Of a stretch of DNA of 64,000 bases, positions 11 to 60,374 are shown in pieces. The position numbers and the translations under genes were made by a program. The stretch comes from Escherichia phage vB_EcoM_DE7. The notes beneath the pieces were generated by a model, which was given only the letters and a program-made list of their open reading frames with translations, did not search any database and was not told the DNA's origin. Each line of letters starts with the position of its first letter. Positions within the stretch are counted from its first letter, which is position 1. The DNA is taken from the sequence record OL825705.1, one strand, 5' to 3'.

Positions 11-388
11 ATGGCATATGAAGGTTTTACTAAGCTAGGTAAAAGAGAACCTCTGAATGATATCATTCTTTGGGAACAGATTACCCCAACAGGTCACTCT
101 CGTAAAGAGTACACTCCAGTTGCTTCAACAGAATACCGTGTAGGTGAAGTTCTGAAAGCAGATGGTACTAAAGTTGCAGCAGGGGAAGAAACTCAGGCTG
201 ATTCTGTATGTATCGTTAATTTTTATGCAGACCTGCAACTGTCTTACCACGGTCAGTTGAAAGTTGTTGGTATTTACCGCGACGCAGAACTGAAAGACAT
301 GCTTACTCTTGAGTCTGGTGTTAATGCTGAGAACGTCAAGAAAGCTCTGGCTGCTAAAGGTATTGATTTCGTACCAACTGGCCTGTAA
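11..388 (+). CDS. putative head decoration protein
   Basis: 125-aa ORF immediately upstream of the capsid-sized ORF on the same strand; call from size and position only. Confidence 0.3.
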   Translation: MAYEGFTKLGKREPLNDIILWEQITPTGHSRKEYTPVASTEYRVGEVLKADGTKVAAGEETQADSVCIVNFYADLQLSYHGQLKVVGIYRDAELKDMLTLESGVNAENVKKALAAKGIDFVPTGL

Positions 389-421
389 TAACAATAATAA
401 GACATTCTGGAGAATTTTACA

Positions 422-1525
422 ATGTTGACTAATTCTGAAAAAAGCAGATTTTTCCTTGCTGACCTGACTGGTGAAGTCCAGTCTATCCCAAATACTTATG
501 GGTATATTTCCAACTTAGGTCTGTTCCGTTCAGCACCAATCACCCAAACTACTTTCCTTATGGACTTGACTGATTGGGATGTTAGCTTGCTTGATGCAGT
601 AGACCGTGATAGCCGTAAAGCAGAGACTAGCGCACCTGAGCGTGTTCGTCAAATCAGCTTCCCAATGATGTACTTCAAAGAAGTTGAAAGCATCACTCCT
701 GATGAAATTCAGGGTGTACGTCAGCCAGGCACTGCAAACGAGCTTACTACTGAAGCTGTAGTACGTGCTAAGAAGCTGATGAAGATTCGTACCAAGTTTG
801 ATATTACTCGTGAGTTCCTGTTTATGCAAGCTCTGAAGGGTAAAGTTGTCGATGCTCGTGGTACTCTGTACGCTGACCTGTACAAGCAGTTCGATGTTGA
901 GAAGAAGACTGTTTACTTCGACCTTGACAACCCTAATGCTGATATCGACGCTTCTATTGAAGAACTGCGTATGCACATGGAAGACGAAGCGAAGACTGGC
1001 ACTGTAATCAACGGTGAAGAAATTCACGTAGTTGTTGACCGTGTGTTCTTCAGCAAGCTGACTAAACATCCTAAGATTCGTGACGCTTATCTTGCACAGC
1101 AGACTCCGCTGGCTTGGCAACAGATTACTGGTTCTCTGAGAACTGGTGGTACTGACGGCGTTCAGGCTCACATGAACACTTTCTACTACGGTGGTGTTAA
1201 GTTTGTCCAGTACAACGGTAAGTTCAAAGACAAGCGTGGTAAGGTTCACACTCTGGTGAGCATTGATGGTGCAGCAGCAACTGTTGGTGTTGGTCATGCC
1301 TTCCCTAACGTTTCTATGCTGGGTGAAGCAAACAACATCTTCGAAGTGGCTTATGGTCCATGTCCTAAGATGGGTTACGCAAATACACTTGGTCAGGAAC
1401 TGTACGTATTCGAATACGAAAAAGACCGTGACGAAGGTATTGACTTCGAAGCTCACTCTTACATGCTGCCATACTGTACTCGTCCTCAGTTGCTGGTAGA
1501 TGTTCGTGCTGACGCCAAAGACTAA
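422..1525 (+). CDS. major capsid protein
   Basis: 367-aa ORF at the head of the co-oriented structural operon, followed by neck-sized ORFs; positional and size evidence. Confidence 0.55.
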   Translation: MLTNSEKSRFFLADLTGEVQSIPNTYGYISNLGLFRSAPITQTTFLMDLTDWDVSLLDAVDRDSRKAETSAPERVRQISFPMMYFKEVESITPDEIQGVRQPGTANELTTEAVVRAKKLMKIRTKFDITREFLFMQALKGKVVDARGTLYADLYKQFDVEKKTVYFDLDNPNADIDASIEELRMHMEDEAKTGTVINGEEIHVVVDRVFFSKLTKHPKIRDAYLAQQTPLAWQQITGSLRTGGTDGVQAHMNTFYYGGVKFVQYNGKFKDKRGKVHTLVSIDGAAATVGVGHAFPNVSMLGEANNIFEVAYGPCPKMGYANTLGQELYVFEYEKDRDEGIDFEAHSYMLPYCTRPQLLVDVRADAKD

Positions 1526-1546
1526 TATTCTTAAGGAGGGTTATGA

Positions 1547-1996
1547 ATGTGTTATACAGGCGACCCAGCCAATAACCCTCTTGATAGAGTAAGAATCCTC
1601 TGCACAGACACCAATAATGATGAAATTCTTATTGAGCAGTCTGTGCTAGAGTGGTTCTATCTAGAATCTGGAAAGGATGAAAAGAAAGCAGCCATCAAAG
1701 CTCTTAAATATTTACTCTTTCAAGTAGCCAAGATGGGAGATGAGAAGGTTGGTGGTGTTTATTTACGTAACTCTTCCAGATTCAAATCTCTGAAAGCTGT
1801 TTATGATGACCTTGTTAAAAGCTCTGTTTCAGGACTGCCCTATGCAGGTGGTATTAACCAGTGCGACATTGACATGCGTCGTCAGAATCCTTGCTCTGTC
1901 AAGAAATACACAGAATATGGTGATGCTGCCAGATACGAAGGCAGAGATTACTGCAACCGTGTTAATGGCGTATTTATTATCGAGCGAGATGAATAA
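1547..1996 (+). CDS. head-tail connector/neck protein (hypothetical)
   Basis: 149-aa ORF between capsid and sheath genes, SD GGAGGG upstream. Confidence 0.25.
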   Translation: MCYTGDPANNPLDRVRILCTDTNNDEILIEQSVLEWFYLESGKDEKKAAIKALKYLLFQVAKMGDEKVGGVYLRNSSRFKSLKAVYDDLVKSSVSGLPYAGGINQCDIDMRRQNPCSVKKYTEYGDAARYEGRDYCNRVNGVFIIERDE

Positions 1997-2478
1997 TGGT
2001 TAAAAGGGTTATTCACCCCGCTAGAGCAAAATTAGTCGGGGCTATGAAGAACTTGCAAACGGCTAATGCTCAAGTTGGGTATTTTCAAGAACAAGGTCAA
2101 CATAGCTCTGGTTTTTCTTATCCTGCTTTAATGTATTTACAAGAAGTTATTGGGGTTCCTTCAGCTTCTGGTAAAGTATATCGTAGGTTGTTTGAAATCA
2201 CTATGATGCTAAACAGACAGACCTTGTTAGAGCAGACTAAGAAGAATCTATATAAGCAACTTAGCAGTCTCAACACAGACCCTTCAAATACCTTAGAAGC
2301 ATTTGCAAAGAATGCTCAAAAGGCAATTAAAAGAGGTTTTGGTAATTCTGCTATCCTCCCTCCTAACGCACCTTCCACAGTCAAGAAAAAAGGCTTTAAT
2401 GCACCTCTTGTTGAGACAGGTGACTTAAGGGAGAACCTTGCTTATAAAATTTCTACTAAGAAGGGTATTAAAAAATGA
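1996..2478 (+). CDS. head completion/neck protein (hypothetical)
   Basis: 160-aa ORF, start overlaps preceding stop; position in neck module. Confidence 0.25.
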   Translation: MVKRVIHPARAKLVGAMKNLQTANAQVGYFQEQGQHSSGFSYPALMYLQEVIGVPSASGKVYRRLFEITMMLNRQTLLEQTKKNLYKQLSSLNTDPSNTLEAFAKNAQKAIKRGFGNSAILPPNAPSTVKKKGFNAPLVETGDLRENLAYKISTKKGIKK

Positions 2479-2876
2479 GACTCTTAAATAGACACAGCTT
2501 TGTAGTAAAGCGTAAAGTCTCTGAAGACGGTTATTATAATGATGATGGTGATTGGGTAGCTTCACAAAATATTGTAGAGGTTAACTGTAAAGGTAATATC
2601 CAGCCATATATCAAAGGTTCTGTAAAGAATGGTACACAGATTGCTTTACCGGAAGGTATTAGACTTACCGATACAAGAATCCTGTATACTACATATAAAC
2701 TTAGAACTTCAGATGATGTAGAGTGGAATGAGTCTGACATTGTTATGATTGATGGTCATGAGTATGAAGTATTTATGACTATGGATTGGTCACAGCAATT
2801 AGCCCATACGTCCCATTATGAATATATCATTATTAGAAGGGATAAAATGAATGCAGTTAGAAACAGCAGAACTTGA
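2475..2876 (+). CDS. neck/tail completion protein (hypothetical)
   Basis: 133-aa ORF, ATGA overlap with upstream gene. Confidence 0.25.
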   Translation: MRLLNRHSFVVKRKVSEDGYYNDDGDWVASQNIVEVNCKGNIQPYIKGSVKNGTQIALPEGIRLTDTRILYTTYKLRTSDDVEWNESDIVMIDGHEYEVFMTMDWSQQLAHTSHYEYIIIRRDKMNAVRNSRT

Positions 2877-3450
2877 AAAAGGTCTAGTTAGAACCTTAGT
2901 GGATGTTATTGGTCACAGACTAGCTCGTGATAAGAATAATAGACCAAACGTAATTAGAGCTTACCCTTCTGATAACTCAAATGACAAAGGTTTAAAACCT
3001 GACCAGCCATTTATTACCGTATATTGTCAAGATGCTGCAACACCTTATGGTTGGGTTCTTGATAAGTTTGTTGAGGATGATGTAGTTTGCTACAGAATTG
3101 CTTTTCAGATTCCAGTGTTAATTATGGTGAATGGTAAAGGTGCTCACAGTATTATGCTTGAGCTTAAACAACGATTAGAGATGAGTTCAGTCAGAGATTT
3201 AATCCTTGAAGAAACAGGAGCTACAGTACTAGACACTGGAGCAATCCCTAATGATTATACTTATCTCAATACAGATTTCGAAAATTCTGCACCTCTTGTT
3301 GTAACTCTTGTAAAAAACTCAGTCCTGAAAGATGAGCGTGGAAGTATTATTGAGCGTGTCATTGTTGATGGTGAGTTAGTTTATGAAGAAGGACAAGAGC
3401 CACCAGAATATATTATCCATCTAGATGTAGACTCCAAAGGGGTAAAATAA
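2851..3450 (+). CDS. tail completion/sheath terminator-like protein (hypothetical)
   Basis: 199-aa ORF immediately upstream of sheath-sized ORF. Confidence 0.25.
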   Translation: MQLETAELEKGLVRTLVDVIGHRLARDKNNRPNVIRAYPSDNSNDKGLKPDQPFITVYCQDAATPYGWVLDKFVEDDVVCYRIAFQIPVLIMVNGKGAHSIMLELKQRLEMSSVRDLILEETGATVLDTGAIPNDYTYLNTDFENSAPLVVTLVKNSVLKDERGSIIERVIVDGELVYEEGQEPPEYIIHLDVDSKGVK

Positions 3451-4803
3451 ATGTGGAATCCAATTGTTAATGTAGATATTACATTGAACACCGCAGGAAC
3501 TACAAGAGAAGGTTTTGGTTTACCACTATTCTTAGCTTCAACAGATAACTTTGAAGAAAGAGTACGTGGCTACACTTCCTTAACTGAAGTTGCTGAAGAT
3601 TTCGATGAGAATACTGCTGCATATAAGGCTGCTAAACAACTTTGGAGTCAGACTCCTAAAGTAACTCAGCTTTATATTGGTAGACGTGCTATGCAGTACA
3701 CTGTATCAATTCCTGATGCCGTTACCGAAAGTACAGACTACTCGATTACTGTAGCTGCTGGCGGTGGAATTTCTCAACCATACCAGTATACAGCGCAAGA
3801 CTCAGACACTGCTGAAGTAGTGTTGCAACAGTTTAAAACACAGATTGAAGCTGACCCAACAATCAAAGATAAGGTTTCTGTGAACGTAACTGGTAGTGGT
3901 GCTTCTACCACAATGGTTATTACCAAAGCTGGTGATAATGACTTTGTGAAGGTAACAACTACAGCACAGACTGTATATATCGCAAGTACAACTGCTGATA
4001 CAGCATCAACTGCTCTGGCAGCTATTGAAGCTTATTCTACTGACTGGTATTTCATCGCAGCAGAAGACAGAACTCAACAGTTTGTCTTAGCAATGGCTTC
4101 TGAGATTCAGGCTCGTAAGAAAATCTTCTTCACTGCTAACTCTGATGTAGCAGCACTGCAAGGTACAGAATTAAACAGTGCAAATGATGTTCCAGCACAG
4201 CTTGCTAAGAACATGTACACCCGTACAGTTTGCTTGTGGCATCACACAGCAGCAGAAGACTATCCAGAGATGGCATACATTGCTTATGGTGCTCCATATG
4301 ATGCAGGGTCAATTGCTTGGGGTAATGCTCAGTTAACTGGTGTAGCTGCTTCTCTGCAGCCATCTAATCACAGACCTTTGACAAGTATTCAGAAGTCAGC
4401 TTTAGATGCACGTCACTGTAACTTTATTGACCTTGATGGTGGTGTTCCAGTGGTTCGTAGAGGGATTACTTCTGGTGGGGAATGGGTTGATATCATCCGT
4501 GGTGTTGACTGGTTAGAATCAGACCTGAAAACTTCTCTGAGAGACTTGCTAATTAACCAGAAGGGTGGTAAGATTACTTATGATGATACTGGTATTACCC
4601 GTATTCGTCAAGTCATTGAAACCTCTCTGCAAAGAGCAGTCAACAGAAACTTCCTGTCATCTTACACAGTTAATGTTCCTAAAGCCTCTCAAGTTGCTTT
4701 AGCAGACAAGAAAGCTCGTATCCTGAAAGATGTTACCTTCGCAGGTGTCTTAGCAGGTGCTATCTTGGATGTTGACTTGAAAGGTACAGTGGCTTACGAA
4801 TAA
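3451..4803 (+). CDS. tail sheath protein
   Basis: 450-aa ORF followed by a 148-aa tube-sized ORF, chaperone pair and tape measure: canonical contractile-tail gene order. Confidence 0.5.
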   Translation: MWNPIVNVDITLNTAGTTREGFGLPLFLASTDNFEERVRGYTSLTEVAEDFDENTAAYKAAKQLWSQTPKVTQLYIGRRAMQYTVSIPDAVTESTDYSITVAAGGGISQPYQYTAQDSDTAEVVLQQFKTQIEADPTIKDKVSVNVTGSGASTTMVITKAGDNDFVKVTTTAQTVYIASTTADTASTALAAIEAYSTDWYFIAAEDRTQQFVLAMASEIQARKKIFFTANSDVAALQGTELNSANDVPAQLAKNMYTRTVCLWHHTAAEDYPEMAYIAYGAPYDAGSIAWGNAQLTGVAASLQPSNHRPLTSIQKSALDARHCNFIDLDGGVPVVRRGITSGGEWVDIIRGVDWLESDLKTSLRDLLINQKGGKITYDDTGITRIRQVIETSLQRAVNRNFLSSYTVNVPKASQVALADKKARILKDVTFAGVLAGAILDVDLKGTVAYE

Positions 4804-4818
4804 TAGAGGTAAATTGGA

Positions 4819-5265
4819 ATGGCTATGTATCAGCAATATTCCCCTAAAGACGTTGTATGTAGCTGGAATGGTATTGCCATTGAAGGCTTTGCTCCAGACT
4901 CATTCTTACGTCTACAGAGAACATCACCACTTATCACACCAGTTGTTGGTGCAGGTGGTCAAGTTGCTCTGACAAGAAATGCAGACAAGACAGGTACTAT
5001 TGAGATTGAGCTAATGCAGACTTCTCTCTCTAATCAGATGCTTTCTGCAATTCAAGCTAAACAAGACAATATGGAACTTGAAGAAGATATCTCTTCTAAC
5101 TTCGTAATCTACGACCCATCAGGCTCTGTTCTGGCAACTGGTATTAACGCTTGGTTGCAGGAATTACCACAGATTGAACTTGGTCGTGACCAGAACTCTA
5201 AAACTTGGATTTTTGGTTGTGAGAAGCTAGACTACACTTCTACAATTCCAGCGTCAAGTGTTTAA
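4819..5265 (+). CDS. tail tube protein
   Basis: 148-aa ORF between sheath and chaperone genes; strong terminator after it. Confidence 0.5.
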   Translation: MAMYQQYSPKDVVCSWNGIAIEGFAPDSFLRLQRTSPLITPVVGAGGQVALTRNADKTGTIEIELMQTSLSNQMLSAIQAKQDNMELEEDISSNFVIYDPSGSVLATGINAWLQELPQIELGRDQNSKTWIFGCEKLDYTSTIPASSV

Positions 5266-5276
5266 TATATCCTATA

Positions 5277-5309
5277 AGGGGGAGACTTTAAAAGGTCTTC
5301 CCCTTTTTT
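5277..5309 (+). terminator. rho-independent terminator
   Basis: GGGGGAGAC/GTCTTCCCC stem followed by TTTTTT directly after tail tube gene. Confidence 0.6.
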
Positions 5310-5338
5310 GTTTCTTTTAAAAGTATTAAGGAATCACA

Positions 5339-5737
5339 ATGAAAACAGAATCTAGAGTAATTAATGGCAAGAAAGTAAATATCATTCTGCTTGGGGCAAG
5401 AGATGGTATTAAGATGTCTATGAAGTTGGGTAAAATTGTTGTTCCAACTTTTGCACAGATGCTATCAAGTCTGACTGATAAAGATAAGAAAGAAGCTCCA
5501 ATGGTTCCATTTAAAGAACTTGTTGAAGCTTGTTTTGACAGAATTGAAGAAATTAACCTTGAAGAAATGGCTACCCTATTATTTCAAGGGGCAACTGTTG
5601 ATGACTTCCCACTTAATATTGATACATACTTCCAAGCAAACTATGGTGAATTTATTGATTACTTAGCATTTGCGCTGGAGGCAAATTTCGGAAGTTTTTT
5701 CGAAGCAAGCATTTTCAAAAGCCTAACTTCTCAGTAA
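5339..5737 (+). CDS. tail assembly chaperone (G-like)
   Basis: 132-aa ORF directly upstream of tape measure; contains slippery T TTT TTC near its 3' end. Confidence 0.5.
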   Translation: MKTESRVINGKKVNIILLGARDGIKMSMKLGKIVVPTFAQMLSSLTDKDKKEAPMVPFKELVEACFDRIEEINLEEMATLLFQGATVDDFPLNIDTYFQANYGEFIDYLAFALEANFGSFFEASIFKSLTSQ

Positions 5738-5739
5738 AC

Positions 5740-5978
5740 ATGGGTAACACTCTACAGACACCACTAACTGATGCTGCTGTAGAGGCAACCTATGAAGAAG
5801 CAGACGAGATGAAATTTGTGCTTGCTATTTATGGTATGGAAGGGTGTAAAGAAACACTTGACCAACTCTTTGCTATGACATTCTCTGATTTATTATCATT
5901 GAGACAATTCCTTGAAATTCAGAGGTCGTATAAAGAGGAAATTGCTTACAACGAACTTAGAAGAGCAGGAAAAATGTA

Positions 5979-5979
<1 letters not shown>
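5740..5979 (+). CDS. tail assembly chaperone -1 frameshift extension (GT-like, probably expressed as fusion with 5339..5737)
   Basis: ORF in -1 frame relative to upstream chaperone; -1 frame open from 5659; heptamer T TTT TTC at 5695-5701. Confidence 0.4.
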
Positions 5980-14013
<8,034 letters not shown>

Positions 14014-14015
14014 TA

Positions 14016-15203
14016 ATGGCAGTAGGTGAAATTCAAATTAGTGCCTTGCCTCAAGCAGCCTTACCAATTGACCTTAGTGATATCTTCCATCTTAAGCAGG
14101 GTATTGAGGATAAGAGGTGTACTCTTGAGCAATTACTTGCTCCACACTCAAGCCTAAAAAATAACCCTCATGGTGTTACTAAAACACAAATTGGTTTAGA
14201 TAATGTTATTAATGCTCTTCAGTTAGTCGCTGCAAATAACTTATCAGATATTGTTAATGTAGCTGAGGCAAGAGCAAATCTACAGATTATGTCTTCAGAA
14301 GAGGTTAATAACCTTGTTCAGCAACATATCAAGGACAAGAGTAACCCACACAATACAACTAAGGCACAGGTTGGTTTAAGTAATGTTCAGAACTGGACAA
14401 CATCTAACCTGTATAATGAAGATGCAGATAAGTATGCTACAGCAAGAGCAGTAAATAATTTGTACAAGGCTGTTCAGGCTTCTTATCCAGTAGGTACTAT
14501 CCATCTTTCTATGAACTCTGCAAACCCTTCTACATACTTAATTTGTGGAGGTACTTGGGAGTTGGTTTCAAAAGGTAGGGCATTGGTTGGCTATGACTCT
14601 GATACAAGGCCAGCAGGTTCTGTATTTGGTGCTTCGACTGTCACTTTGTCAGTTAATAACATGCCTCAACACTCCCACTCTGTATCTCTTGGTGGTGGTG
14701 GTCACACTCATAATGCAACTGTTTCAATCTCAGCTTTTGATTATGGAACTAAGACTACCAACTCTTTTGACTATGGAACAAAGACCACTAACACAACTGG
14801 TAACCACAATCACGTTGGTAGTGGGTCAACAAGTGCTGCTGGTGCTCACAACCACAGATTGACTTATGAAGCAGGTGGTGGTCTGTCGGAAAGACCTGCA
14901 ATGGTTTGGTCTACAAGGAATGACCAATCGTGGTACTCATCAGATGCTGTCTGCGAAGTCGCTGGCTCGCACACCCACTCTTTTAGCGTTACCACTAATA
15001 CAACTGGTAACCATAATCATACGGTGGGTATTGGTGCTCATAGTCATACAGTTGGTATTGGTTCACATACGCACAACGGTACTGTGACAGTTTCTTCTTC
15101 TGAGCATACACATAGCGGAAACACTAATAGTGTTGGTGGTGGGCAAGCTTTCAACATTGAGCAGCCATCCTTCGTACTGTATGTATGGCAGAGAACAGCT
15201 TAA
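14016..15203 (+). CDS. tail fibre protein with His-box (HxH) repeats
   Basis: 395 aa; C-terminal SHTHS, GNHNHT, AHSHT, SHTHN, EHTHS repeats and C-terminus similar to next gene (…YVWQRTA vs …MAWVRTA). Confidence 0.55.
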   Translation: MAVGEIQISALPQAALPIDLSDIFHLKQGIEDKRCTLEQLLAPHSSLKNNPHGVTKTQIGLDNVINALQLVAANNLSDIVNVAEARANLQIMSSEEVNNLVQQHIKDKSNPHNTTKAQVGLSNVQNWTTSNLYNEDADKYATARAVNNLYKAVQASYPVGTIHLSMNSANPSTYLICGGTWELVSKGRALVGYDSDTRPAGSVFGASTVTLSVNNMPQHSHSVSLGGGGHTHNATVSISAFDYGTKTTNSFDYGTKTTNTTGNHNHVGSGSTSAAGAHNHRLTYEAGGGLSERPAMVWSTRNDQSWYSSDAVCEVAGSHTHSFSVTTNTTGNHNHTVGIGAHSHTVGIGSHTHNGTVTVSSSEHTHSGNTNSVGGGQAFNIEQPSFVLYVWQRTA

Positions 15204-15212
15204 TTTCTTTAC

Positions 15213-15233
15213 AGGGGCTTTATAGCCCCTTTT
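15213..15233 (+). terminator. rho-independent terminator
   Basis: AGGGGCT/AGCCCCT hairpin followed by TTTT after first fibre gene. Confidence 0.5.
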
Positions 15234-15249
15234 AAGAGGAAAATTTATA

Positions 15250-17625
15250 ATGGCAGATTACAAGTTGAGTGAATTAAACTCAATCGACACAATCCGTTCA
15301 GACGACCTTCTTCATGTCAGAGTTAAAAAGAGACCTGAAATGCTGGGTGATGAAGACCGTCGAATGACCTATCAAGACTTCTTAGCGTCTTTTAAACTTG
15401 AAAGATTTGTTCAGATTGCTGGTAGTAATATGACAGGTGACTTAGGGATTGTTAAGCTACTTTATGGCGGTAAGGCAGTATTTGACCCAACAGACTCTTC
15501 TGAGATTAGTATTGGGGATGTTTTAAAGACTTTTAAAATTAACGCAAATGGTCTTAAACTAACTATTGCAGATGCTTCAAGGTCGGCAACTGTTTACCAT
15601 ACTCTGAATAAACCAAGTCCTAATGAGCTTGGGATGAGAACTAATGAACAGAATGATGCAAGGTATGCAAGGCTAAGCGTTGGTAATACATTTAAAGCTA
15701 AACAGATTATCACAGTAGATGGTGAAGCATTAGCACTTAAAAATACTTCTGATATGCCATCTTTATATATTAGAGGTAAAGATTCAGGAGATAGATTAAA
15801 GTGGTACGTTGGATTTAACACAGAAAATAAACTTGGTTTATCTAATAGTGTTACTGGTACAACACTACTATTAGATGATACCGGTATTAACTCAAATAAA
15901 AATCTAAATATCACTGGTCAGGTTAAACCCTCTGATTGGTCTAACTTAGATGCTAGATATTTTACTCAGACAGTAGCTAATCAGAGATTTGCACAGTTAG
16001 CTGGGAATAACACTTTTAGTGGCACTAATACGTTTAAAAAAGATGTTATCTTTAACTCAGATGTTCCGGTTGTTCTTAAGAACTTAACAGCTAATAAACC
16101 ATTGTATATTCAGGGTAAGGATTACCAGAATACTAGTTTGTGGTTTGTTGGTAAGGGTGGAACTGGTACTGAGATTAAATTTTATAACTATGCGACTGAT
16201 ACAGTTTTAGAGTTGTCTGAGACGGCTAGATTTAATAAAACTTTGAAGGTTACTGGACAGGTTCAACCGTCTGATTGGGCTAACATTGACTCTAGATACA
16301 TTCCAGCAGCAACTTTAAGTACTCTTGCAAAAATTAATGCTAAGAATACTTTTTCTCAAGGTCAGATTATTAAGGTTGACGGAGAGGGTATTAGACTTCA
16401 GGGGGTAAATGATACTGGTGGTTTGTTCTTGCGAGGTTATACTTCTGATGGTACTAAGAAGTGGTTTATGGGTACTAATGCTTCAGGTAACTTCACTATC
16501 AGGGAGATGGTGCTAGGCACTGAACTGTCTCTTAGGGAGAACTATATCCAGTTTAATAAGAATGTAACAATTAATGGGCAGGTTCAACCATCCGACTGGG
16601 CTAACCTAGATGCTAGATACTATACAGGTTCAGCAGCAAATGCCAGATATATGTATGCGGAAAGAACTGGTGAAGGTGCTGATGAGGGTGCTATTGCTTG
16701 GAATGCTAAGACAGGAGTATATAATGTCAAGACGGGAGCCGCATCATCAAATCTTGTACTTCAGTTCTATCAGGGGTCGGGGTCTATCCCATCTACGCCA
16801 TCTGCGCAGCTAAGATTTAAATGGGCGAATGGTGGTATGTGGTATAGGACATCAAGAGATGGTAATGGCTTTGAGAAAGGTTGGTCTATGGTGTACACAA
16901 CTGCACAGAAGCCAACCCCTTCAGATATTGGTGCATATACTAAAGCAGAAACTGACCAGAAAATTGCAACAGCAATTAGTGACTCTACAGACCTGAATAA
17001 AATCTATCCAGTAGGTATTGTAACGTGGTTTAACAGTAATGTTAACCCTAATACAGCACTCCCTGGTCTAACTTGGACGTACCTGAATAATGGTGTTGGC
17101 AGAACTATTAGAATTGCAGCAGCAAATGGTTCAGATGTTGCTACAACTGGTGGTTCAGATTCTGTAACGTTATCTGTTGGTAACTTACCTTCACACACAC
17201 ACAGTTTCTCTGCTACCACTTCATCATTTGATTATGGTACGAAGGGCACTAATAGTACTGGTGGACATACTCACTCTGTAAGTGGTACAACAAGTGCTGC
17301 TGGTAACCATGCTCACCACTTAGGTCTACTATTGGTTAATGGCGGTGATGCTCAGTACGGATATACCACTATTGGTAACAGCAAGACAAGAACTCTTGAC
17401 TGGCTTGATAGAAGAGATAACAAGTTCCCTAACACTAACACAACTGGTAACCATACACACACATGGTCTGGTACTACAAGCGGTGCTGGTAACCATTCCC
17501 ACTCTGTAGGCATTGGTGCTCACAGCCACACAGTTAGTGGTAACACTGGTAGTACAGGTTCTGGTTCAGCATTTAGTGTTACTAACCAGTTCTATAAGTT
17601 AATGGCTTGGGTAAGAACTGCTTAA
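15250..17625 (+). CDS. long tail fibre protein
   Basis: 791 aa; three internal ~110-aa tandem repeats each ending GQVxPSDWxNxDxRY; C-terminal HxH boxes shared with 14016..15203. Confidence 0.6.
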
Positions 17626-17632
17626 TCCCTTG

Positions 17633-17697
17633 TTGACTGATTGTTAAGATGGTGTTAATATTCTTTATGGGTATTCTCACCATCTTGGCTGATGAGG
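17633..17697 (+). promoter_or_regulatory. sigma70-like promoter (TTGACT-17-TAATAT) with overlapping 9-bp inverted repeat
   Basis: TTGACT 17633-38, TAATAT 17656-61; AAGATGGTG (17646-54) and CACCATCTT (17678-86) flank the -10. Confidence 0.4.
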
Positions 17698-17704
17698 TGA
17701 TTAA

Positions 17705-17902
17705 ATGCCTACAATCCTAGCAATTCTTCTAAAAAATCTAGGTAGCTTCTTCTGGAAACTCATTTTATCCCTTCTAAGTGAATACATGATTGAGAAAGTG
17801 TTCTTTAGGCTTGCAAGATACCTTGCGAGTAAAACAGACACACCTATTGATGATGAGTTCGTAGATAACTTAGAAAAAGCTTTTAAGGGGGAGAATAAAT
17901 GA
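17705..17902 (+). CDS. small membrane protein (possible lysis/holin-like)
   Basis: 65 aa with hydrophobic N-terminal segment, SD GAGGTGA. Confidence 0.3.
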   Translation: MPTILAILLKNLGSFFWKLILSLLSEYMIEKVFFRLARYLASKTDTPIDDEFVDNLEKAFKGENK

Positions 17903-18270
17903 AGTGGCTAGAGGAGGCTTTTAAAAATAATATTGGTGCAATTGTAGTTGGTATTCTTAGTGTTATTGGGATGTATACCACCATGCAAGTTTCGGAAGGT
18001 AAACAAGAAGTGTCTATCACAACAAAATTACAGCAGTTAGATAATTATTCCAAAAGTAATTATTCAGCTATTCGTGATTTACAGTCTGATATGAGGCTGC
18101 TTCAGCTAGGGATGGAGAACCAGAAAGTCCAGTTAGAGAATGTTAAGGGTGAGAACGCAAAACTTACTAAAACCCTTGATAAATTCTCTGACAGTGTGAA
18201 CAATCTGGCTCAATCAGTATCAGCCCTCCAAGCTATTACTGAAAAGAACACAAAGAATACTGAAAAGTAA
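17899..18270 (+). CDS. membrane-anchored coiled-coil protein
   Basis: 123 aa; N-terminal TM (IGAIVVGILSVIGMY) then heptad-rich region. Confidence 0.3.
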   Translation: MKWLEEAFKNNIGAIVVGILSVIGMYTTMQVSEGKQEVSITTKLQQLDNYSKSNYSAIRDLQSDMRLLQLGMENQKVQLENVKGENAKLTKTLDKFSDSVNNLAQSVSALQAITEKNTKNTEK

Positions 18271-18275
18271 AATTT

Positions 18276-18304
18276 AAGGCTCCTTTTTACGGGAGCCTTT
18301 TTTG
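18276..18304. terminator. bidirectional rho-independent terminator between convergent operons
   Basis: GGCTCC/GGAGCC hairpin with T-run on + strand; sits between + gene ending 18270 and - gene ending 18307. Confidence 0.6.
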
Positions 18305-18306
18305 TT

Positions 18307-19206
18307 TTACTTACCTACTGACAAAGGTGCTTCAATCTTTCCTGCATGTTGGTAATTGTTAATACCACCAATAAAGTCACTTGCAGTGAGATGTTTTAAG
18401 TCACTTAAAGTGTTAAGTGGGATACCAATCTCAAAAGTTGGTGCATGGAACTCTTCATTGTTCATCAGTTCATAAACCTGCTTCATATGATTCTGATAAA
18501 TCTGAGTATCCCCAAAGACACCTATCAAGTACCGTGGAGTGTATCCAGTCATCTTACAAAGAACTTCCAGAATAAAACCATAAGATGCAATATTAAACGG
18601 AAGTCCTAAAAAGGTGTCTACTGAACGCTGATACCATTGTAAGTCAACTTCACCCTCGTTAGTAATATAAATCTGAAACAGAACATGACAAGGTGCTAGA
18701 GCCATTGAGTTTGCTGCAATATCTGCTGCATTCCAAGCATTAACAAGCATGTAACGGTCTGTGATATCACCTTTCATCTTCGTTACTAAGGCCTCTAGTT
18801 GGTCTACAACACAACCGTTATGACCTTCAAAGTTTCTCCACTGAACCCCATAAATTCTTCCACCTGCATCTTCTAACCAATCTTGTTCAGAAGAGTAATT
18901 AGAGCTTAACCAGCGTTTAAAATCATCTGACCAGATTGTCCAACGTTCTCCGTCATTTTCATCCCAAGTACGGTAACGGAGTTCACCAAGCTTATTCTCA
19001 CCGTTCAGGAACCATAAAGCTTCCCCAATAACTTGCCGTGTAAACACCTGTTTAGATGTTAAGAGAGGGAAACCAGTTCGCATATCAAAACGAAACTGAG
19101 GTGGAGCAAATGCAGAGATAACATCTCCAGTTCGTGTAGTACGCAGTTCACCGACGGATAAAACATGGTTCAGGATATTTTTGTAACTTGAATCTGCTTG
19201 TGACAT
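18307..19206 (-). CDS. thyA: thymidylate synthase
   Basis: ThyA signatures in translation: FPLLTSK, ALWFLNG, active-site LAPCHVLFQIY, QRSVDTFLGLPFNIASYG. Confidence 0.9.
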   Translation of the reverse strand: MSQADSSYKNILNHVLSVGELRTTRTGDVISAFAPPQFRFDMRTGFPLLTSKQVFTRQVIGEALWFLNGENKLGELRYRTWDENDGERWTIWSDDFKRWLSSNYSSEQDWLEDAGGRIYGVQWRNFEGHNGCVVDQLEALVTKMKGDITDRYMLVNAWNAADIAANSMALAPCHVLFQIYITNEGEVDLQWYQRSVDTFLGLPFNIASYGFILEVLCKMTGYTPRYLIGVFGDTQIYQNHMKQVYELMNNEEFHAPTFEIGIPLNTLSDLKHLTASDFIGGINNYQHAGKIEAPLSVGK

Positions 19207-20900: not shown

Positions 20901-21230
20901 TTAATCTGCCAGCCTTAAATTAAAATTAACACCAAATTTTTCGCATACTTCCAACATATACTCAAGGGAGACATTACCAGTGAGGTGGATTATGTTGGAT
21001 ACACGAGCCTGAGAGATACCACAAATTTTAGCAACTTGCTCTTGAGAAAGACCTCTGGATTTAATCTCTCTCTTAAAACGATGTGCAACGAAATCTCTCA
21101 TTTCGTCTACATCCATTGGACAAATATAACTTTCCATTTCAGCCTCTCTGTCAGCCTCCCAATCATCTTGTGGAGCATAAGGGTCAAAAACCTCATTCAT
21201 CTTTCTTCTTCCGTTTTCGTGAAGTGTCAA
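20901..21230 (-). CDS. HTH (XRE-like) DNA-binding protein
   Basis: C-terminal helix-turn-helix-like segment LSQEQVAKICGISQARVSNI. Confidence 0.5.
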   Translation of the reverse strand: MTLHENGRRKMNEVFDPYAPQDDWEADREAEMESYICPMDVDEMRDFVAHRFKREIKSRGLSQEQVAKICGISQARVSNIIHLTGNVSLEYMLEVCEKFGVNFNLRLAD

Positions 21231-21790: not shown

Positions 21791-21896
21791 AATGACCTCA
21801 AAGTTATATTAAATTTTATATTACATTGAGTATAAAAAATAAGCTATAACACCTGACTTGTCAACAGATTTTATAGCTTACTTGGCAGATTTTTTA

Positions 21897-21975
21897 TAAG
21901 GCTACTGCCATCCTTCCATACCAAACCACACCAAACCCTGCCAAACCAGAGCCTACTAGACCATACCGAACCAAA
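21897..21975. repeat. CCAAACC direct repeat cluster (GGTTTGG on coding strand)
   Basis: CCAAACC x3 plus CGAACCAAAC within ~70 bp in the intergenic region upstream of the 21790 gene. Confidence 0.4.
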
Positions 21976-22079
21976 CATCACTTAAGAACCTTTTAAAAGT
22001 GTTTTTAAGTGATGCTGGTGAGTACCCGTTGGTTTATGCTGCTCAGTATACTCACCAAATTTTCTATGTCAACAACTTT

Positions 22080-23855: not shown

Positions 23856-24371
23856 TCAAGATAGTTTTGCAAACTCTCCGTGGAGTTTCACAGCAGCTTC
23901 ACAGTAAGCTTTATGGGCTTCTTCTTCTGTTGTGTACGTCCCGATATGTATAGTCTTACCATTATGGTTAATCTGGGCTTTCCACTTACCAGACTTACTT
24001 CTACTTGTACCTTTTAAGTTTTTTGATGTTCTAGGTTGCCTCCTATTAGACATGTTCTGTTCTTTTGTGGCCTCTCTAAGATTGTCCCAAGCATTATTCA
24101 AACCGTTCCCGTCTTTGTGGTCAATATGATTGTCAGGCCACTTACCTGTCATCCAGAACCAAGCAATTCGGTGATTGCCTGTCCTGTATCCTAAAATCTG
24201 GGTTTGCATATACACACCAGACCTTGTGCGCTTGATTGTACCAGCCTGTCTTCCAATCACCACCCTACTGCTATGTGGAGGTCTGCCAATCCAAGTCAAG
24301 ACCCCTGTTTCGGGGTCGTAGTCTAACCAAGATTTTAACTGTTCATGTGTGAATCCACAATCTCTCATCAA
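23856..24371 (-). CDS. HNH homing endonuclease with AP2-like DNA-binding domain
   Basis: HNH motif IDHKDGNGLNNAWDNLREATKEQN plus C-terminal AP2-like segment SGKWKAQINHNGKTIHIGTYTTEEEAHKAY. Confidence 0.75.
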   Translation of the reverse strand: MMRDCGFTHEQLKSWLDYDPETGVLTWIGRPPHSSRVVIGRQAGTIKRTRSGVYMQTQILGYRTGNHRIAWFWMTGKWPDNHIDHKDGNGLNNAWDNLREATKEQNMSNRRQPRTSKNLKGTSRSKSGKWKAQINHNGKTIHIGTYTTEEEAHKAYCEAAVKLHGEFAKLS

Positions 24372-24927
24372 TGTACCTCATACCACGATTTACCAACCTT
24401 TGCTGTACCAGTTACAAGTGTTTCTTTCCTCAAACCTAAGTTTTTTGAAGCTTGTCCATACATCCAGTCAGCAATTGCTTTCATATCATGTGTCATACCC
24501 TCTGGACATTCCCAACTATTTTCATCGTGATATGCCAGAAGTAACCTTGCTCCGATAGCTGGTTTTCGAGCATTCAGTTTTGTCAGACCATCTTCACAGG
24601 CTTTTCTTGCTGCTAGGTTGATGGCCTCATTCTGAATCTGTGCTTCCGAACTCATCAGGAGGTAGTTCAGTAGTTTATGTGGAGATTTGCACCATATCCA
24701 TGCTCCAGCGACCCTGATATAACCACCTTTAGCAATTGAAGAATTCTTCCCAAAAACCTCTTCCAGAGCCTTTTTAGACGCCTTAAAATCGGCTTCTAAG
24801 CTATCAAGTAACTTCTTAATCTTTGGCAGACGCATATAGTAGGTCTGCTTAGTCAATGCACCTTCCTCTGTAGAAGCTGCCTTAATGGTTTTGGCAAACT
24901 TCTCATCACCTGCACCGAACAATACAT
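24368..24927 (-). CDS. DNA polymerase (family A), exon 2
   Basis: Begins with motif B remainder LFGAGDEK and ends ...KSWYEVH like the Pol I C-terminus; no ATG, joined to exon 1 by splicing (junction +/- 3 nt). Confidence 0.7.
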
Positions 24928-25732
24928 CTGGTCAATACACTCGCAAGGTGTACCAGTTCTCTTATGAACTTCTCCGCATTTCTACGGAGTGTCGGACTAT
25001 ATCACGTAGTAGTTATACTACCGTTGCACTTGGGAATGGTCATTAGCTTACCACCCTACTCTACTCAGTTCATACATTAAGTATGCTTTTCGATAGTCTC
25101 TGAACGTTTCTCTGTTAGGAATCTCTATAGTTATATCATTTGCTTAGATAGTCAATTGCTCTTTGCATGTTATCAACACTATCTGCAAGCAACCCCAAAG
25201 CTCTGTTGCAATTGTGGCATAACATACCTCTTACCTTTCCGGTTTTATGGTCATGGTCAACAACAAGTTTAGCCTTGTGTCGTGAGCCATTCATGATAAA
25301 ACCTTCACCGCCACAAATTTGACATTTGTAATCACAGTCACGGAGTAGGGCTTCAACCTCTTCTCTTTCCAATCCATATGTTCTTAGGTAGTAATTCTTA
25401 ACTCTACCTTTCTCACCGCAATGTGACGAACAATAAACTTGCCTTGCTGTTCTCGGCATGAACACATTCTCACAACTAGGACATTTCTTAGTAAGAACCC
25501 TGTGTTCCGCCCTTCTGTCAAATTTTAACACACAACTTCTGCACCGTTTTTGATTGTATTGGTACGGTTTAAACTCCGTGCCACACTCAGTGCATAATCT
25601 CTCTTCGTAACCTGCCATTGTCTCTCTCCTTTGTTTTAGGAGTCCTAACAGAGACTTCGCTGCTGATTACCATATCTTTACAGACTTAGGCTTCCAGCAA
25701 TTCACAACGTTTTACATGCGCCACTGACGCAT
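24928..25732 (-). other. group I intron in DNA polymerase gene, carrying an endonuclease ORF
   Basis: Interrupts motif B; stop codon just inside; AGACUA ... GAUAUAGUCCGAC P7-like elements shared with the nrdD intron; hairpin with U-G at proposed 5' splice site; G before exon 2. Confidence 0.6.
25136..25618 (-). CDS. intron-encoded Endo VII-type HNH endonuclease
   Basis: VVDHDHKTGKVRGMLCHNCNRALG motif and zinc-binding cysteines; own SD AAAGGAGAGAGA. Confidence 0.7.
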   Translation of the reverse strand: MAGYEERLCTECGTEFKPYQYNQKRCRSCVLKFDRRAEHRVLTKKCPSCENVFMPRTARQVYCSSHCGEKGRVKNYYLRTYGLEREEVEALLRDCDYKCQICGGEGFIMNGSRHKAKLVVDHDHKTGKVRGMLCHNCNRALGLLADSVDNMQRAIDYLSK

Positions 25733-27902: not shown

Positions 27903-28125
27903 TACTGCAAAAAATTATAAAAAGCAAGTTGACAATGTACTTGACAAGGTGTTAATCTTTGCGAAGTGGGTTTTTACTTAAAAGGTTACTTAACAGTTTA
28001 ACTATACAGATACTTTAAAACTCTTAAAAGATTATTTAATAGCTTTTAAAAAGCTTTAAAGTATAACGTATAGAATACGTTAAGATAAAAGATTAAAACT
28101 TAATAGTTACTTAAAAGAGGCTTAC
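27903..28125. promoter_or_regulatory. divergent AT-rich control region between polymerase operon (-) and + strand operon
   Basis: Tandem TTGACA hexamers (TTGACAATGTACTTGACA) and AT-rich spacers; separates divergently transcribed blocks. Confidence 0.4.
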
Positions 28126-41063: not shown

Positions 41064-42260
41064 ATGAACAAAGTACAGATTATTAAAAAGAATGGCTCAC
41101 TTGAAGAACCGGATATCAAAAAAGTTTTAACAGCAGTAACTAAGTCAGCTAACAGGGTTGGTTATAAAGAACTCCCACCAGATGTTATCCAAGCTCTTGA
41201 GTCAGCATTTATGAGGATTCTGGTAAAATCCACTAAGCAGAATAACTTGCTCATCTCGGTAAATGATATCCACAGTATCGTTGAAGGTGCTTTGGCAGAA
41301 GTCAATCACGAGATTTATGAGTCTTACTCAACATATAGAAATTACCGTAAAGAGGTTGCTCAAAATTGGGATGAACTTTACCAAAAGACCAGAGACACGC
41401 TCTTCTTAGGTGACCGTGAAAATGCTAACTTTGACAGTAGTTTAATTTCTACAAAAGGTTCAATTATTCGTGGTTATCTGACTAAAGAAATCTTTAAACA
41501 GTACCATTTAACACCAGAGGAACTTGAAGCCATTGAAAAAGGGTTTATCTACATCCATGACTTAAGAGACCTAATTTTTGGTGGTATTAACTGTTGCCTG
41601 TTCGACATTGGTAAAGTACTGAAAGGTGGCTTTGAAATGTCTGGCATCGAATACTGTGAACCTAAGTCTGTGCTGTCAGCCTTACAGGTTATTGGTGATG
41701 TAGTTCTTTCAGCAACTGCACAGCAATTTGGTGGCTTTACTTTAGCAGAGATTGATAAGGTGCTTGTACCGTATGCTAAGAAGTCTCTACGCTATCATGC
41801 TGAGAAAGCAGCATCTTATGGTATCCCTAAAGAACATTACCATAATTATGTCATGGAGCAGCTACAGATTGAATTAACTCAAGGTTTCCAGTCACTAGAG
41901 ATGAAGCTAAATACTGTACCTTGCAGCCGTGGTGATTTTGCATTCACAACTTTAACATTTGGTTTACTTGACTCAGATATGTCTAATGAAGACAACCGAC
42001 TACAATACATGATTGCAAACACCATTCTTGATGTTCGTATGAATGGACAAGGTAAGAGCAAGAAACCTGTTGTATTTCCTAAACTGGTTTATATCTATGA
42101 CCAGAAGAGACACGATGAGAATATCTGTCAAGGTCAACTGTACAGTAAAGCTATTGAGTGTTGCTCTAAAGCAATGTATCCAGATTTCTTAAGCGTCTCT
42201 GGTCATGGTGCTGTAGCAGAGGCTTTTGAGCGTTCTGGTAAGGTTATTTCACCGATGGGT
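41064..42260 (+). CDS. nrdD: anaerobic ribonucleotide reductase, exon 1
   Basis: N-terminal ATP-cone-like region; reading frame ends ...ISPMG then stop inside the intron. Confidence 0.85.
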
Positions 42261-42576
42261 TAACAAGCTCTATAGCTCATCTAAAACGTGCCTAAACAGG
42301 GAAACTCTACAGGTGTAGACAATCCTGTGCTAAATGATGTACGATGTAAGAAACTATATAACATAGAAGTATTACATGCCAAATAACCTCGAATATGAGT
42401 TTGAGTACATTTAAATGCCGAACGACTAACCGTGATGAATGTAGCGGTGTAGGGTCAAGCGACTCGAAATGGCACGCTACTTAGAAATAAGTAGAAGATA
42501 TAGTCTGGACTTACTGGCGACAGTAAGCAGCTTGAATAAAGCGGGGTAAGCGTAGCGAACTTACCTGAACAACAAG
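42261..42576 (+). other. group I intron (no ORF) in nrdD
   Basis: GUAGACAAUCCUGUGCUAAAU, GACUAACCG and AGAUAUAGUCUGGAC segments resemble the T4 td-type intron core as recalled; exon ends in U, intron ends in G; exons join in frame across PMG|CRAFL. Confidence 0.8.
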
Positions 42577-43524: not shown

Positions 43525-43533
43525 AACTTGACA

Positions 43534-43575
43534 AGGTGGTGTAGGTCTTGATAGGCTTACATCACCTTTTTTATT
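43534..43575 (+). terminator. rho-independent terminator
   Basis: AGGTGGTGTA ... TACATCACCT hairpin followed by TTTTTT after nrdD. Confidence 0.55.
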
Positions 43576-52181: not shown

Positions 52182-52260
52182 AGTGTTTGACAAGGGGCTT
52201 TGAAGCCCCTTAGAATAGCCTTACAAAATGATTTATTAACTAACAAGAGAGAGTAATAAG

Positions 52261-57526: not shown

Positions 57527-57595
57527 GAAACTCTGTAGAATATTCACAATAGACTAAGCCTTTCTTATCTGGTAAATTTTTCAGGTAAGGAGGGC

Positions 57596-57790
57596 TTTTT
57601 CATTTCAGGATTGTGCAGGTAGATTTCTGGACAGAAATCTGTAGAGAGGATTTTGAACTCCAAAGAGAAAATTCATTTTCAAACTGTGCAGGTAATCTCC
57701 AAAGAGCTTTTTCATTTTCAAAACGTGCAGAGAAAAATCAGGTCGGGCAAGAAAAATCATTTTCGAATTGTGCAGGTAGGTGGGTGCAGG
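57596..57790. repeat. iteron-like direct repeat array (4-5 copies of CATTTTCAAAnTGTGCAGGTA)
   Basis: Copies at ~57601, ~57673, ~57714, ~57759 plus a GTGCAGGTGGGG extension; spacing 41-72 bp; non-coding. Confidence 0.6.
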
Positions 57791-57954
57791 TGGGGATGTC
57801 GCCATTTCTCACAAGGCTACCACATCTAGAAATAAAAGTCAACAGAAAAATTTGTAGCGGCTTGAAAAATAATTCTTGATTGTAGTTCTGTTTTGTGGTA
57901 GTCGCGTGCGCCCGTTTCATTACATTTTTGCCAAAAATATTTTTAAAATTTTTA

Positions 57955-58048
57955 TTGACTCCTCGAACGGGTTTTTATAGTATTTGCATCAACGGGGAGG
58001 GAATGACCTTCCCCACTAAGTAAAACCCTTAAACTAGGAGATTCAAAA
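57955..58048 (+). promoter_or_regulatory. type-1 leader cassette: promoter (TTGACT-17-TAGTAT) + conserved hairpin leader + RBS
   Basis: Core ATCAACGGGGAGGGAATGACCTTCCCCACTAAGTAAAACCCTTAAACTAGGAGATTCAAAA ends at ATG 58049. Confidence 0.6.
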
Positions 58049-59406: not shown

Positions 59407-59415
59407 AAATTTTTA

Positions 59416-60342: not shown

Positions 60343-60374
60343 TAACCTATACAATCACCTTATAAACACTGATT

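Follow-up and report, generated by a model that had tools for sequence, protein, structure and literature searches.

On balance, the 79-bp gap that follows the last tail-fibre gene of Escherichia phage vB_EcoM_DE7 (OL825705.1) appears to be a composite boundary of promoter and stem-loop, similar to the PeSL ('promoter-early stem-loop') cassettes, and would shield a cassette of two membrane-protein genes from the late operon. The phage is a Felix O1-like myovirus (coliphage) of the genus Felixounavirus, and a stretch of 64,000 nucleotides of its genome, hereafter the window, was analyzed. We determined the sequence features of the element, the stability and strand asymmetry of its hairpin, its conservation, its copy number (one) and its positional analogues in relatives. 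Felix O1-like phages are widely used in typing and biocontrol of Salmonella and E. coli. According to the genome paper of Felix O1, neither the basis of temporal control nor the part played by read-through and secondary promoters had been established (PMC3185647). The element described here offers a concrete candidate for the boundary that divides the late structural operon from a conserved membrane cassette of two genes.

The element occupies positions 17626-17704 of the window, between the stop codon of the tail-fibre gene and the ATG of a 65-aa ORF. This tail-fibre gene is the second of the phage, and no large gene of the late morphogenesis operon comes after it. The genes across 11-18270 are tightly packed and lie on the + strand throughout. 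Only three gaps of at least 40 bp were found in the structural module, the element among them, and both remaining gaps (5266-5338 and 15204-15249) contain canonical terminators. The small-gene cassette and the convergent thyA-frd operon are closed by a bidirectional terminator, which is the counterpart of Felix O1 t79/t80 (PMC3185647, Table 2); t79 is located at Felix O1 position 54120. The region 17000-18400 matched 274 phage records at 80-99% identity, mostly from Escherichia, Salmonella, and Shigella phages. The coordinates of all features are collected in Table 1.

Table 1. Features of the tail-fibre/small-gene junction and of other promoter/hairpin modules (window coordinates).
Feature	Position	Strand	Basis and remarks
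Tail-fibre gene (791 aa)	15250-17625 (stop codon 17623-17625)	+	ORF list; PHROG 4277 'tail fiber protein', E = 0; related records also call it a tail fibre
Pyrimidine-rich tract	17626-17635	+	Just past the stop codon; can pair with the Shine-Dalgarno region 17690-17700 to give a weak outer helix
-35 hexamer TTGACT	17633-17638	+	5/6 consensus matches
Full RNA hairpin, 47 nt	17643-17689	+	19 bp, interrupted, 4 U·G
Left repeat arm AAGATGGTG	17646-17654	+	In the promoter spacer; invariant in all aligned homologues
Extended -10, TG-t-TAATAT	17653-17661	+	TG at 17653-54; inside the 5' half of the hairpin
Predicted transcription start	17667-17669	+	Inferred; 6-8 nt past the -10 (sigma70 geometry); 3' edge of the apical loop
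Right repeat arm CACCATCTT	17678-17686	+	About +10 to +18 of the predicted transcript; part of the invariant block 17670-17690
65-aa gene: Shine-Dalgarno GAGGTG (17694-99), start codon (17705-07)	17694-17707	+	Both complementary to the hairpin 3' arm (GGUAUU..CACC)
65-aa protein gene	17705-17902	+	PHROG 402, function unassigned; 'holin' in some records
123-aa protein gene	17899-18270	+	PHROG 4038, function unassigned; 'holin' in other records
Bidirectional intrinsic terminator	18276-18299	both	Terminator scan; PMC3185647 Table 2; annotated in related records
Promoter TTGACA-16-TATACT with TGGTGAGTA/TACTCACCA across the -10	22072-22045 (module 22072-22016)	-	Repeat and promoter scans
Promoter/hairpin TTGACA-[GGGGCTTTGAAGCCCC]-TAGAAT	52182-52216		Intergenic scan
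Promoter/hairpin TTTACA-..GGGGCTTA..(-10)..TAAGCCCC	58444, 58914, 59715, 61765		Intergenic scan

An earlier, sequence-only reading had placed at this site a sigma70 promoter and a perfect 9-bp inverted repeat, and the coordinates of both were confirmed: TTGACT is followed after a 17-nt spacer by TAATAT (17656-17661), and the two arms of the repeat are separated by 23 nt. By sequence, the promoter is of the extended -10 sigma70 type, with 9 of 12 hexamer positions matching the consensus, a TG dinucleotide, and the 17-nt spacing. Promoters of this type combine a -35 similar to TTGACA, a spacer of 16-18 nt, a -10 hexamer having A2 and T6, and a TG that is separated from the -10 by one base. Its -35 box is situated 66 nt upstream of the ATG at 17705, on the same strand and within the 79-bp gap. 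Promoter matches of equal quality, including the TGn, were found 8 times in the window (6.0 +/- 2.2 expected), and a laxer pattern was found 50 times in 15 kb (41.9 expected). The window has 14 perfect 9-bp inverted repeats whose loops measure 3-30 nt, as compared with 7.8 +/- 3.0 in Markov simulations. Taken alone, the bare repeat and the promoter pattern each occur at chance frequency genome-wide. The probability of a promoter match falling in exactly this gap on the right strand, derived from the count of promoter matches, is ~0.004. The intergenic sigma70 promoters found elsewhere in the phage (TTGACA/T, 17 nt, TAGAAT/TATACT/TAATGT/TAGTAT) are of the same style, and the string GGTGTTAAT, present at the extended -10, also stands ahead of the -10 in one of the promoters of the main divergent early region (27903-28125). 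We consider it probable that the sigma70-type promoter at 17633-17661 is real.

The published data for Felix O1 bear on what this promoter may drive. Since t79 corresponds to the terminator at 18276-99 of the window, ORFs 78 and 79 of Felix O1 are most likely the two small genes. RT-PCR signals of the tail-fibre ORFs 76 and 77 peaked at 60 min, that of ORF 78 at 25 min, and that of ORF 79 at 5 min (PMC3185647). The timing table is noisy, as exemplified by the major capsid ORF 58, which is listed at 5 min (PMC3185647); with this caveat, it agrees with an independent promoter for the small genes. A promoter at this junction is absent from the list given in the Felix O1 genome paper (PMC3185647), and a search of the available papers for Felixounavirus transcript maps (5' or 3' ends) returned none that was usable. 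The proposal that the promoter drives two small membrane proteins is plausible in view of the hexamers, the spacing, the conservation described below, the timing of ORFs 78 and 79, and the presence of two small ORFs with N-terminal hydrophobic segments.

The inverted repeat is the core of a larger hairpin, and the symmetry of the site had been under-described in the earlier reading. In + strand RNA, 17643-54 pairs with 17678-89 in a lower stem of 12 bp, which includes two U·G pairs. Above a 2x2 internal loop, it continues into an upper stem of 7 bp (17657-63 with 17669-75, again with two U·G pairs), which is closed by a 5-nt apical loop (17664-68). The hairpin begins 4 nt past the -35 box and 18 nt past the tail-fibre stop codon, and it contains the -10 box. 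Its fold energy was -23.7 kcal/mol (z = -7.9), and none of 200 shuffled sequences was as stable. Among 42,630 local 55-nt folds on both strands of the 64 kb, it ranked third, even though it is AU-rich. When the same region was folded as - strand RNA, only -12.8 kcal/mol was reached, because 4 of the 19 pairs are U·G. The fold can be extended to 85 nt (-28.2 kcal/mol) by the outer helix formed by the pyrimidine-rich tract, which contributes about -4.5 kcal/mol. In the alignment of homologues, this outer helix (helix 1) was 96% paired, with every change one-sided. A U that is bulged in the window finds a partner in Moogle-like phages, where an A is inserted.

The conservation of the element was assessed in 45 homologous loci from IMG/VR, metagenomes, and GenBank; the metagenome scan gave 10 loci, all from close relatives. 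Both 9-bp arms, as well as the whole block 17670-17690, were invariant in 45/45 loci from three phage genera. The informative comparison was that of the window with nine diverged sequences of the Moogle-like and SUSP-like clades. In these sequences, the 3' end of the tail-fibre gene showed 51-62% identity to the window and the two downstream genes 75-85%; thyA in the diverged clades showed 70-77%. The segment 17676-17689, which covers the 3' lower arm and internal loop, was identical at 14/14 positions in all nine, and so was the -35 hexamer at 6/6 positions, with 4-7 variable bases on either side. The spacing between the -35 and -10 boxes was 17 nt in all clades, and promoter variants were rare among the 45 loci (TTAACT in 2, TAACAT in 1). 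The element is conserved well above the background divergence. The differences within the hairpin were confined to the apical loop, where there were also indels, to the top pair (C-G to U-A), to a U·G pair of the lower stem (to C-G), and to two mismatches at the stem base. Overall, 97.7% of the hairpin alignment cells were paired (97-99%). A single pair, the top one, showed a double change; 66 of 500 shuffles did likewise, and this covariation is not significant, since there is almost no variation among the sequences. Near-perfect sequence conservation in place of compensated drift could alternatively be a sign of sequence-specific protein binding. A 23-codon ORF within the element (17649-17720, MVLIFFMGILTILADEVIKCLQS) was rejected as a coding sequence. 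Its frame is shifted in relatives by 1-nt loop indels (loci L005 and L013) and by +1 or +5 nt in Moogle-like phages, which indicates that the constraint on the element is not protein-coding.

The repeat had been interpreted as an operator for a dimeric repressor. In such a model, a dimeric or tetrameric repressor of phage or host origin, bound to half-sites flanking the -10 and +1, would time the promoter. We regard this explanation as very unlikely. It is true that the half-sites are perfectly conserved in sequence, beyond mere pairing potential, and that a spacing of three helical turns puts them on one face of the DNA. A candidate for binding them is the XRE-type helix-turn-helix protein whose gene lies at a distance of 3 kb (20901-21230, - strand; PF01381, E = 5e-10), and the strong - strand promoter at 22072-22045 also carries a perfect 9-bp repeat over its -10. 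Classical operators of dimeric repressors, however, are compact, with half-sites contiguous or a few bp apart, whereas the arms at 17646-17686 are separated by 23 bp, or 32 bp centre to centre. Moreover, the symmetry runs on through four U·G positions, which makes it strand-specific and non-palindromic in duplex DNA.

The search for further copies of the half-sites also argued against a DNA operator. The arm AAGATGGTG with up to one mismatch gave 52 matches (18 expected), none of them paired at a promoter. Nearly all were on the coding strand within genes, which fits codon composition (AAG-ATG-GTG-like strings), and further exact 9-mers of the repeat were within genes or unpaired. A blastn search (word size 7) with the 79-nt element, together with half-site searches, found only the element itself across the window and L047, a sequence that covers what remains of a near-identical genome. 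Neither a second copy nor a relaxed pair of half-sites was present at a promoter of the window or of the remaining ~22 kb of EF202P1, a near-identical phage. The stems at other promoters are unrelated in sequence; they imply no shared regulator, and a structural role can explain them.

The 3' flank of the hairpin, GGCUGAUGAGG / GGCTGATGAGG, contains no U-tract, and the sequence does not have the form of an intrinsic terminator, that is, a G+C-rich stem followed by a U-tract. The terminator scan did not report the hairpin either. For both reasons, efficient intrinsic termination is doubtful. In the GenBank record of phage ASO1B, the counterpart of 17643-17689 is annotated as a WebGeSTer predicted 'terminator'; such an assignment was rejected here, given that the hairpin has no U-tract. 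In more distant Ounavirinae from Hafnia and Erwinia, the sequence at the junction is different. Hafnia phage Zyzzx has a canonical intrinsic terminator at the same junction (GGGGTCTTTACAGACCC, then a T-run) and no promoter-like sequence there. In Erwinia phage Omen, TTGACA is found 7 nt past the stop codon, followed by a 21-bp terminator hairpin with a U-tract and then by a homologue of the 65-aa protein gene. These two terminators, together with the ASO1B annotation, indicate that a hairpin acting on the incoming tail-fibre transcript is the conserved theme of the junction. In the lineages of Felixounavirus, Moogle, and SUSP, the junction hairpin comes without the U-tract and is joined to a probable promoter. 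Like the junction terminators of Ounavirinae and t64, t76, and t79 of Felix O1, the element has a stable coding-strand hairpin directly after the tail-fibre stop codon. It differs from those intrinsic terminators in that the hairpin has no U-tract, the stem is AU-rich and interrupted, a promoter is overlapped, and the consensus scan misses it.

The distant junctions also bear on whether a promoter is present at all. The hairpin could be the only functional part, with TTGACT and TAATAT fortuitous or conserved for another reason and the small genes expressed by late read-through. The promoter-like matches of equal quality that occur at chance frequency fit this possibility, and the conservation of a -10 box inside a conserved stem is not independent evidence for a promoter. 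In Omen, a TTGACA that precedes a full terminator makes little sense as a promoter-to-gene unit, and the Zyzzx junction does without any promoter-like sequence. Such an explanation does not account for the TTGACT hexamer, which is conserved between variable flanks and has just two bases in any predicted helix, nor for the -10 spacing fixed in all clades. The resemblance to the other promoters of the phage and the peaks of Felix O1 ORFs 78 and 79, which come before those of ORFs 76 and 77 (PMC3185647), also speak for a promoter. We therefore consider a hairpin without a functional promoter unlikely.

In the composite promoter/stem-loop reading that we prefer, the DNA would act as an extended -10 promoter of the host sigma70 type (TTGACT, 17 nt, TGtTAATAT), and the 47-nt hairpin sequence covers the spacer, the -10, and the predicted start site of this promoter. 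What we infer here is that the promoter is active, where transcription starts, and how the hairpin affects RNA. Late tail-fibre transcripts would carry both arms, and the hairpin would form on them just past the tail-fibre stop codon, where it would most likely serve as an attenuator and/or as a 3'-end barrier or processing site and separate the tail-fibre message from the downstream one. It could act by transcription termination, by blocking 3' exonucleases, or through RNase III cleavage. Since the predicted +1 is in the apical loop, read-through RNA would fold with both arms, and RNA initiated at the promoter would begin in the loop and possess the 3' arm only. The promoter mRNA would thereby encode the two small membrane proteins independently of late transcription.

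A comparable architecture is known from the PeSL cassettes of the T4-like phages RB49, phi1, PST, and nt-1 (Arbiol et al. 2010, PMC2839356; Comeau et al. 2014, PMC4122927), whose promoter and terminator activities were demonstrated with reporters (PMC2839356; PMC4122927). They are defined by a stable stem-loop located between the -35 and -10 or over the -10, and at their 3' end the following gene has its Shine-Dalgarno and ATG (PMC2839356). The element has this arrangement, with the hairpin over the -10, followed by the Shine-Dalgarno at 17694-99 and the ATG at 17705. It also shares with the PeSLs the sigma70-type promoter, the intergenic location ahead of small genes without known function, and the proposed role, which is to attenuate incoming transcription and restart it. 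There are several differences. The PeSLs form a repeated family scattered in hyperplastic regions, where they flank ORFans, whereas the element is present in a single copy in the window and L047. Its stem is AU-rich with U·G pairs, in contrast to the polyG/polyC of PeSLs, and the AT-rich tract typical of PeSLs upstream of the -35 is absent: 17608-17628, which is tail-fibre coding sequence, has 57% A+T, as compared with ~61% for the genome (the G+C content of Felix O1 is 39%). Finally, the element ends a late structural operon and not an early hyperplastic region, and its phage belongs to Ounavirinae and is not T4-like. It is best read as an element of the PeSL kind, single-copy and atypical in composition, in a phage group in which such elements are undescribed.

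A promoter located inside a regulatory hairpin is also known from T4 gene e (lysozyme), soc, 49, and I-TevI (McPheeters et al. 1986, reviewed in PMC3014915). As in gene e, the -10 of the element is in the 5' half of the hairpin and the inferred +1 is in the loop, so that RNA initiated upstream folds and RNA initiated at the promoter is without the 5' strand. In both cases, a possibly lysis-related gene lies beside structural genes. The hairpin of gene e, however, buries the Shine-Dalgarno and AUG, whereas the main hairpin of the element stops 5 nt before the Shine-Dalgarno. Furthermore, the internal promoter of gene e is late (gp55), whereas that of the element is of the sigma70 type and it is the upstream transcripts that are late. 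Any translational logic would therefore be inverted with respect to gene e.

An inverted logic of this kind could be provided by a switch between RNA isoforms, in which the 3' arm (GGUAUU..CACC) pairs either with the 5' arm, available in read-through RNA only, or with the RBS of the 65-aa gene (GGUG..AAUGCC), through GGUAUU:AAUGCC and CACC:GGUG. Promoter mRNAs would sequester their own Shine-Dalgarno and AUG, and late read-through would free the RBS. We consider this switch with three partners, which would couple two membrane proteins (candidate holin or lysis-timing functions) to late transcription, decidedly unlikely, and yet several observations are in its favour. The AUG was 98-100% paired in the predicted short transcript in all clades. 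The energy needed to open the RBS was ~11-12 kcal/mol in short transcripts; in RNA starting from the stop codon, the Felixounavirus-type and SUSP-like sequences needed 5.5-7 kcal/mol. The conservation of 17670-17690 in the 45 loci exceeds that of the 5' arm, as expected for a strand with two partners; a three-way constraint would explain stems without covariation, and promoters inside regulatory hairpins have a precedent (PMC3014915). On the other hand, the fold of the short transcript is ordinary for a sequence of this composition (z = -1.3; its stability was reached by 20 of 200 shuffles), and the start site on which it depends is a predicted one. In Moogle-like phages, the opening energies of long and short transcripts are similar or reversed, and the weak outer helix covers the Shine-Dalgarno in long transcripts too. 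Translation by itself already constrains the GGUG, the AUG, and the CCN proline codon, which makes their conservation uninformative. Because the direction of the difference in RBS accessibility is inconsistent across clades, the switch was retained only as a rival to the composite boundary. If it were true, constitutive sigma70 mRNAs would be made early and remain silent, with the 3' arm on their own Shine-Dalgarno and AUG, and only read-through from the tail-fibre gene would supply the 5' arm that captures the 3' arm and frees the RBS. This would explain a 21-nt leader (17670-17690) that is invariant over three genera without covariation, and it would represent the logic of T4 gene e in inverted form.

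Another possibility is that the hairpin is primarily a processing site for RNase III, or another double-strand-specific enzyme, in a polycistronic late transcript, as at the intergenic sites of phage T7. Cleavage would make the tail-fibre message independent of the downstream one in both stability and translation. The hairpin resembles RNase III sites of the T7 R1.1 type, which lie between genes and form irregular hairpins that span about two helical turns, contain an internal loop, and lack a U-tract. The shape and size are suitable (stems of 12 and 7 bp on either side of the 2x2 internal loop, with 5 nt in the apical loop, about two helical turns in all and no U-tract), the location is between genes of one operon, and the stability is exceptional for an AU-rich sequence. 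Nevertheless, the element has no sequence or covariance-model similarity to such sites. No Rfam or other model matched it: the search of 17300-18400 against Rfam with E up to 10 gave nothing credible, the best hit being an insignificant one to a microRNA model (E = 5), and at gathering thresholds the whole window gave nothing credible for the hairpin. The ordinary terminators of distant relatives also favour termination or 3'-end formation over processing. RNase III processing as the main function thus seems improbable.

The two genes downstream of the element overlap. The 65-aa protein has an N-terminal hydrophobic segment (Kyte-Doolittle 19-residue maximum 1.56, residues 3-21), and Pfam returned nothing for it. 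The 123-aa protein has an N-terminal transmembrane segment (Kyte-Doolittle maximum 1.67, residues 11-29) and a coiled-coil-like remainder, for which Pfam gave only weak, sub-threshold coiled-coil matches. An ORF embedded in the 123-aa gene (17948-18040, 'LLGC') was tried as an o-spanin candidate and rejected, because it starts with TTG and has just 8 residues ahead of the Cys. A lipoprotein signal peptide needs more than 8 residues before the Cys. The lysis-related function that the promoter was suggested to time is not established: both proteins belong to PHROGs without known function, public records attach the 'holin' label now to one and now to the other, and gp79 is only one of five holin candidates in the Felix O1 genome paper (PMC3185647).

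The combination of a promoter with an overlapping hairpin recurs in the window with unrelated stem sequences (Table 1). Of the 14 perfect 9-bp repeats, 6 are located in the intergenic ~8% of the window. The element and these other modules suggest that the design principle of PeSLs extends beyond T4-like phages to Ounavirinae. For annotation, the example indicates that the RNA fold should be checked on each strand before a repeat over a -10 is called an operator. As a separate observation, repeats with a more typical PeSL-like appearance are present elsewhere in the window, at 58.4-63.2 kb.

The 3′ half of the RNA hairpin at 17643-17689, which overlaps a predicted sigma70-type promoter, is covered by the 21-nt block GGTATTCTCACCATCTTGGCT (17670-17690). 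This block was identical in all 45 homologous loci gathered from IMG/VR, metagenomes, and GenBank. Across these loci, it was more strongly conserved than the 5′ arm of the hairpin and than either of the promoter hexamers. Pairing within the hairpin alone does not account for this stricter constraint. In RNA made from the predicted promoter of the element, the block would make up the initial ~20 nt. In Erwinia phage Omen (L046), Omen_027 (2717-2995) seems to have been annotated with a start that lies too far upstream. An intrinsic terminator is spanned by its initial 23 codons as annotated, and the Omen homologue of the 65-aa protein begins with the ATG at 2787; AAAGAGG precedes this ATG.

Two families of repeated intergenic cassettes were observed upstream of small early ORFs at 57527-63173 on the + strand. 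In family 1, a -35-like box and a Shine-Dalgarno sequence accompany a 9-bp hairpin that encloses a -10-like box. Both families are similar to the repeated PeSL (promoter-early stem-loop) cassettes of T4-like phages. Two promoter matches with repeats were also found within the 289-bp region 21791-22079, where the genes lie on the - strand. Apart from the helix-turn-helix protein listed in the table, no phage-encoded DNA-binding regulator is obvious in the neighbourhood of the element.

Features of the window, with their positions and supporting matches
Feature	Position	Strand	Evidence or description
XRE-family helix-turn-helix protein, 109 aa	20901-21230	-	PF01381, E = 5e-10; PHROG 1373 'transcriptional regulator'
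Second promoter with repeat TAAGCTATA/TATAGCTTA	21864-21836	-	
Leader hairpin	21967-22021		-22 kcal/mol
Perfect 9-bp repeat TGGTGAGTA/TACTCACCA	22016-24 and 22049-57		Overlaps -10 of promoter 22072-22045
Promoter TTGACA-16-TATACT	22072-22045	-	Best match in the promoter scan
Family A DNA polymerase fragment	24368-24922	-	PF00476, score under its cut-off
Endonuclease VII-domain ORF	25136-25618	-	PF02945, E = 6e-20
Group I intron	42191-42527	+	Rfam RF00028, 55.6 bits (gathering score 50), E = 2e-11
TTGACA followed directly by intrinsic terminator	43529-43575	+	16-bp stem, U-tract, -23.3 kcal/mol
Cassette family 1	58444, 58914, 59715, 61765	+	'ACTTTACA(A/G)GGGGCTTA...TAAGCCCCAGATAAAGAG...CCTAAATTGGAGATTCAAAA'
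Cassette family 2	~57990, 59450, 60675, 61440, 62520, 63110	+	'CAACGGGGAGGGAATGACCTTCCCCACTAAGTAAAACCCTTAAACTAGGAGATTC'

The Endonuclease VII-domain ORF lies upstream of the polymerase fragment, with a gap of 213 nt between them. The region 24368-25618 resembles a polymerase gene into which a homing endonuclease or an intron-like sequence has been inserted. The group I intron interrupts nrdD, the gene for the anaerobic ribonucleotide reductase. The two halves of PF13597 are matched by separate ORFs, the N-terminal half by 41064-42263 and the C-terminal half by 42658-43524. For Felix O1, the abstract of the genome paper (PMC3185647) reports that introns are absent. The 5′ arm of the terminator at 43529-43575, AAGGTGGTGT, is similar to AAGATGGTGT, an arm of the element at 17643-17689.
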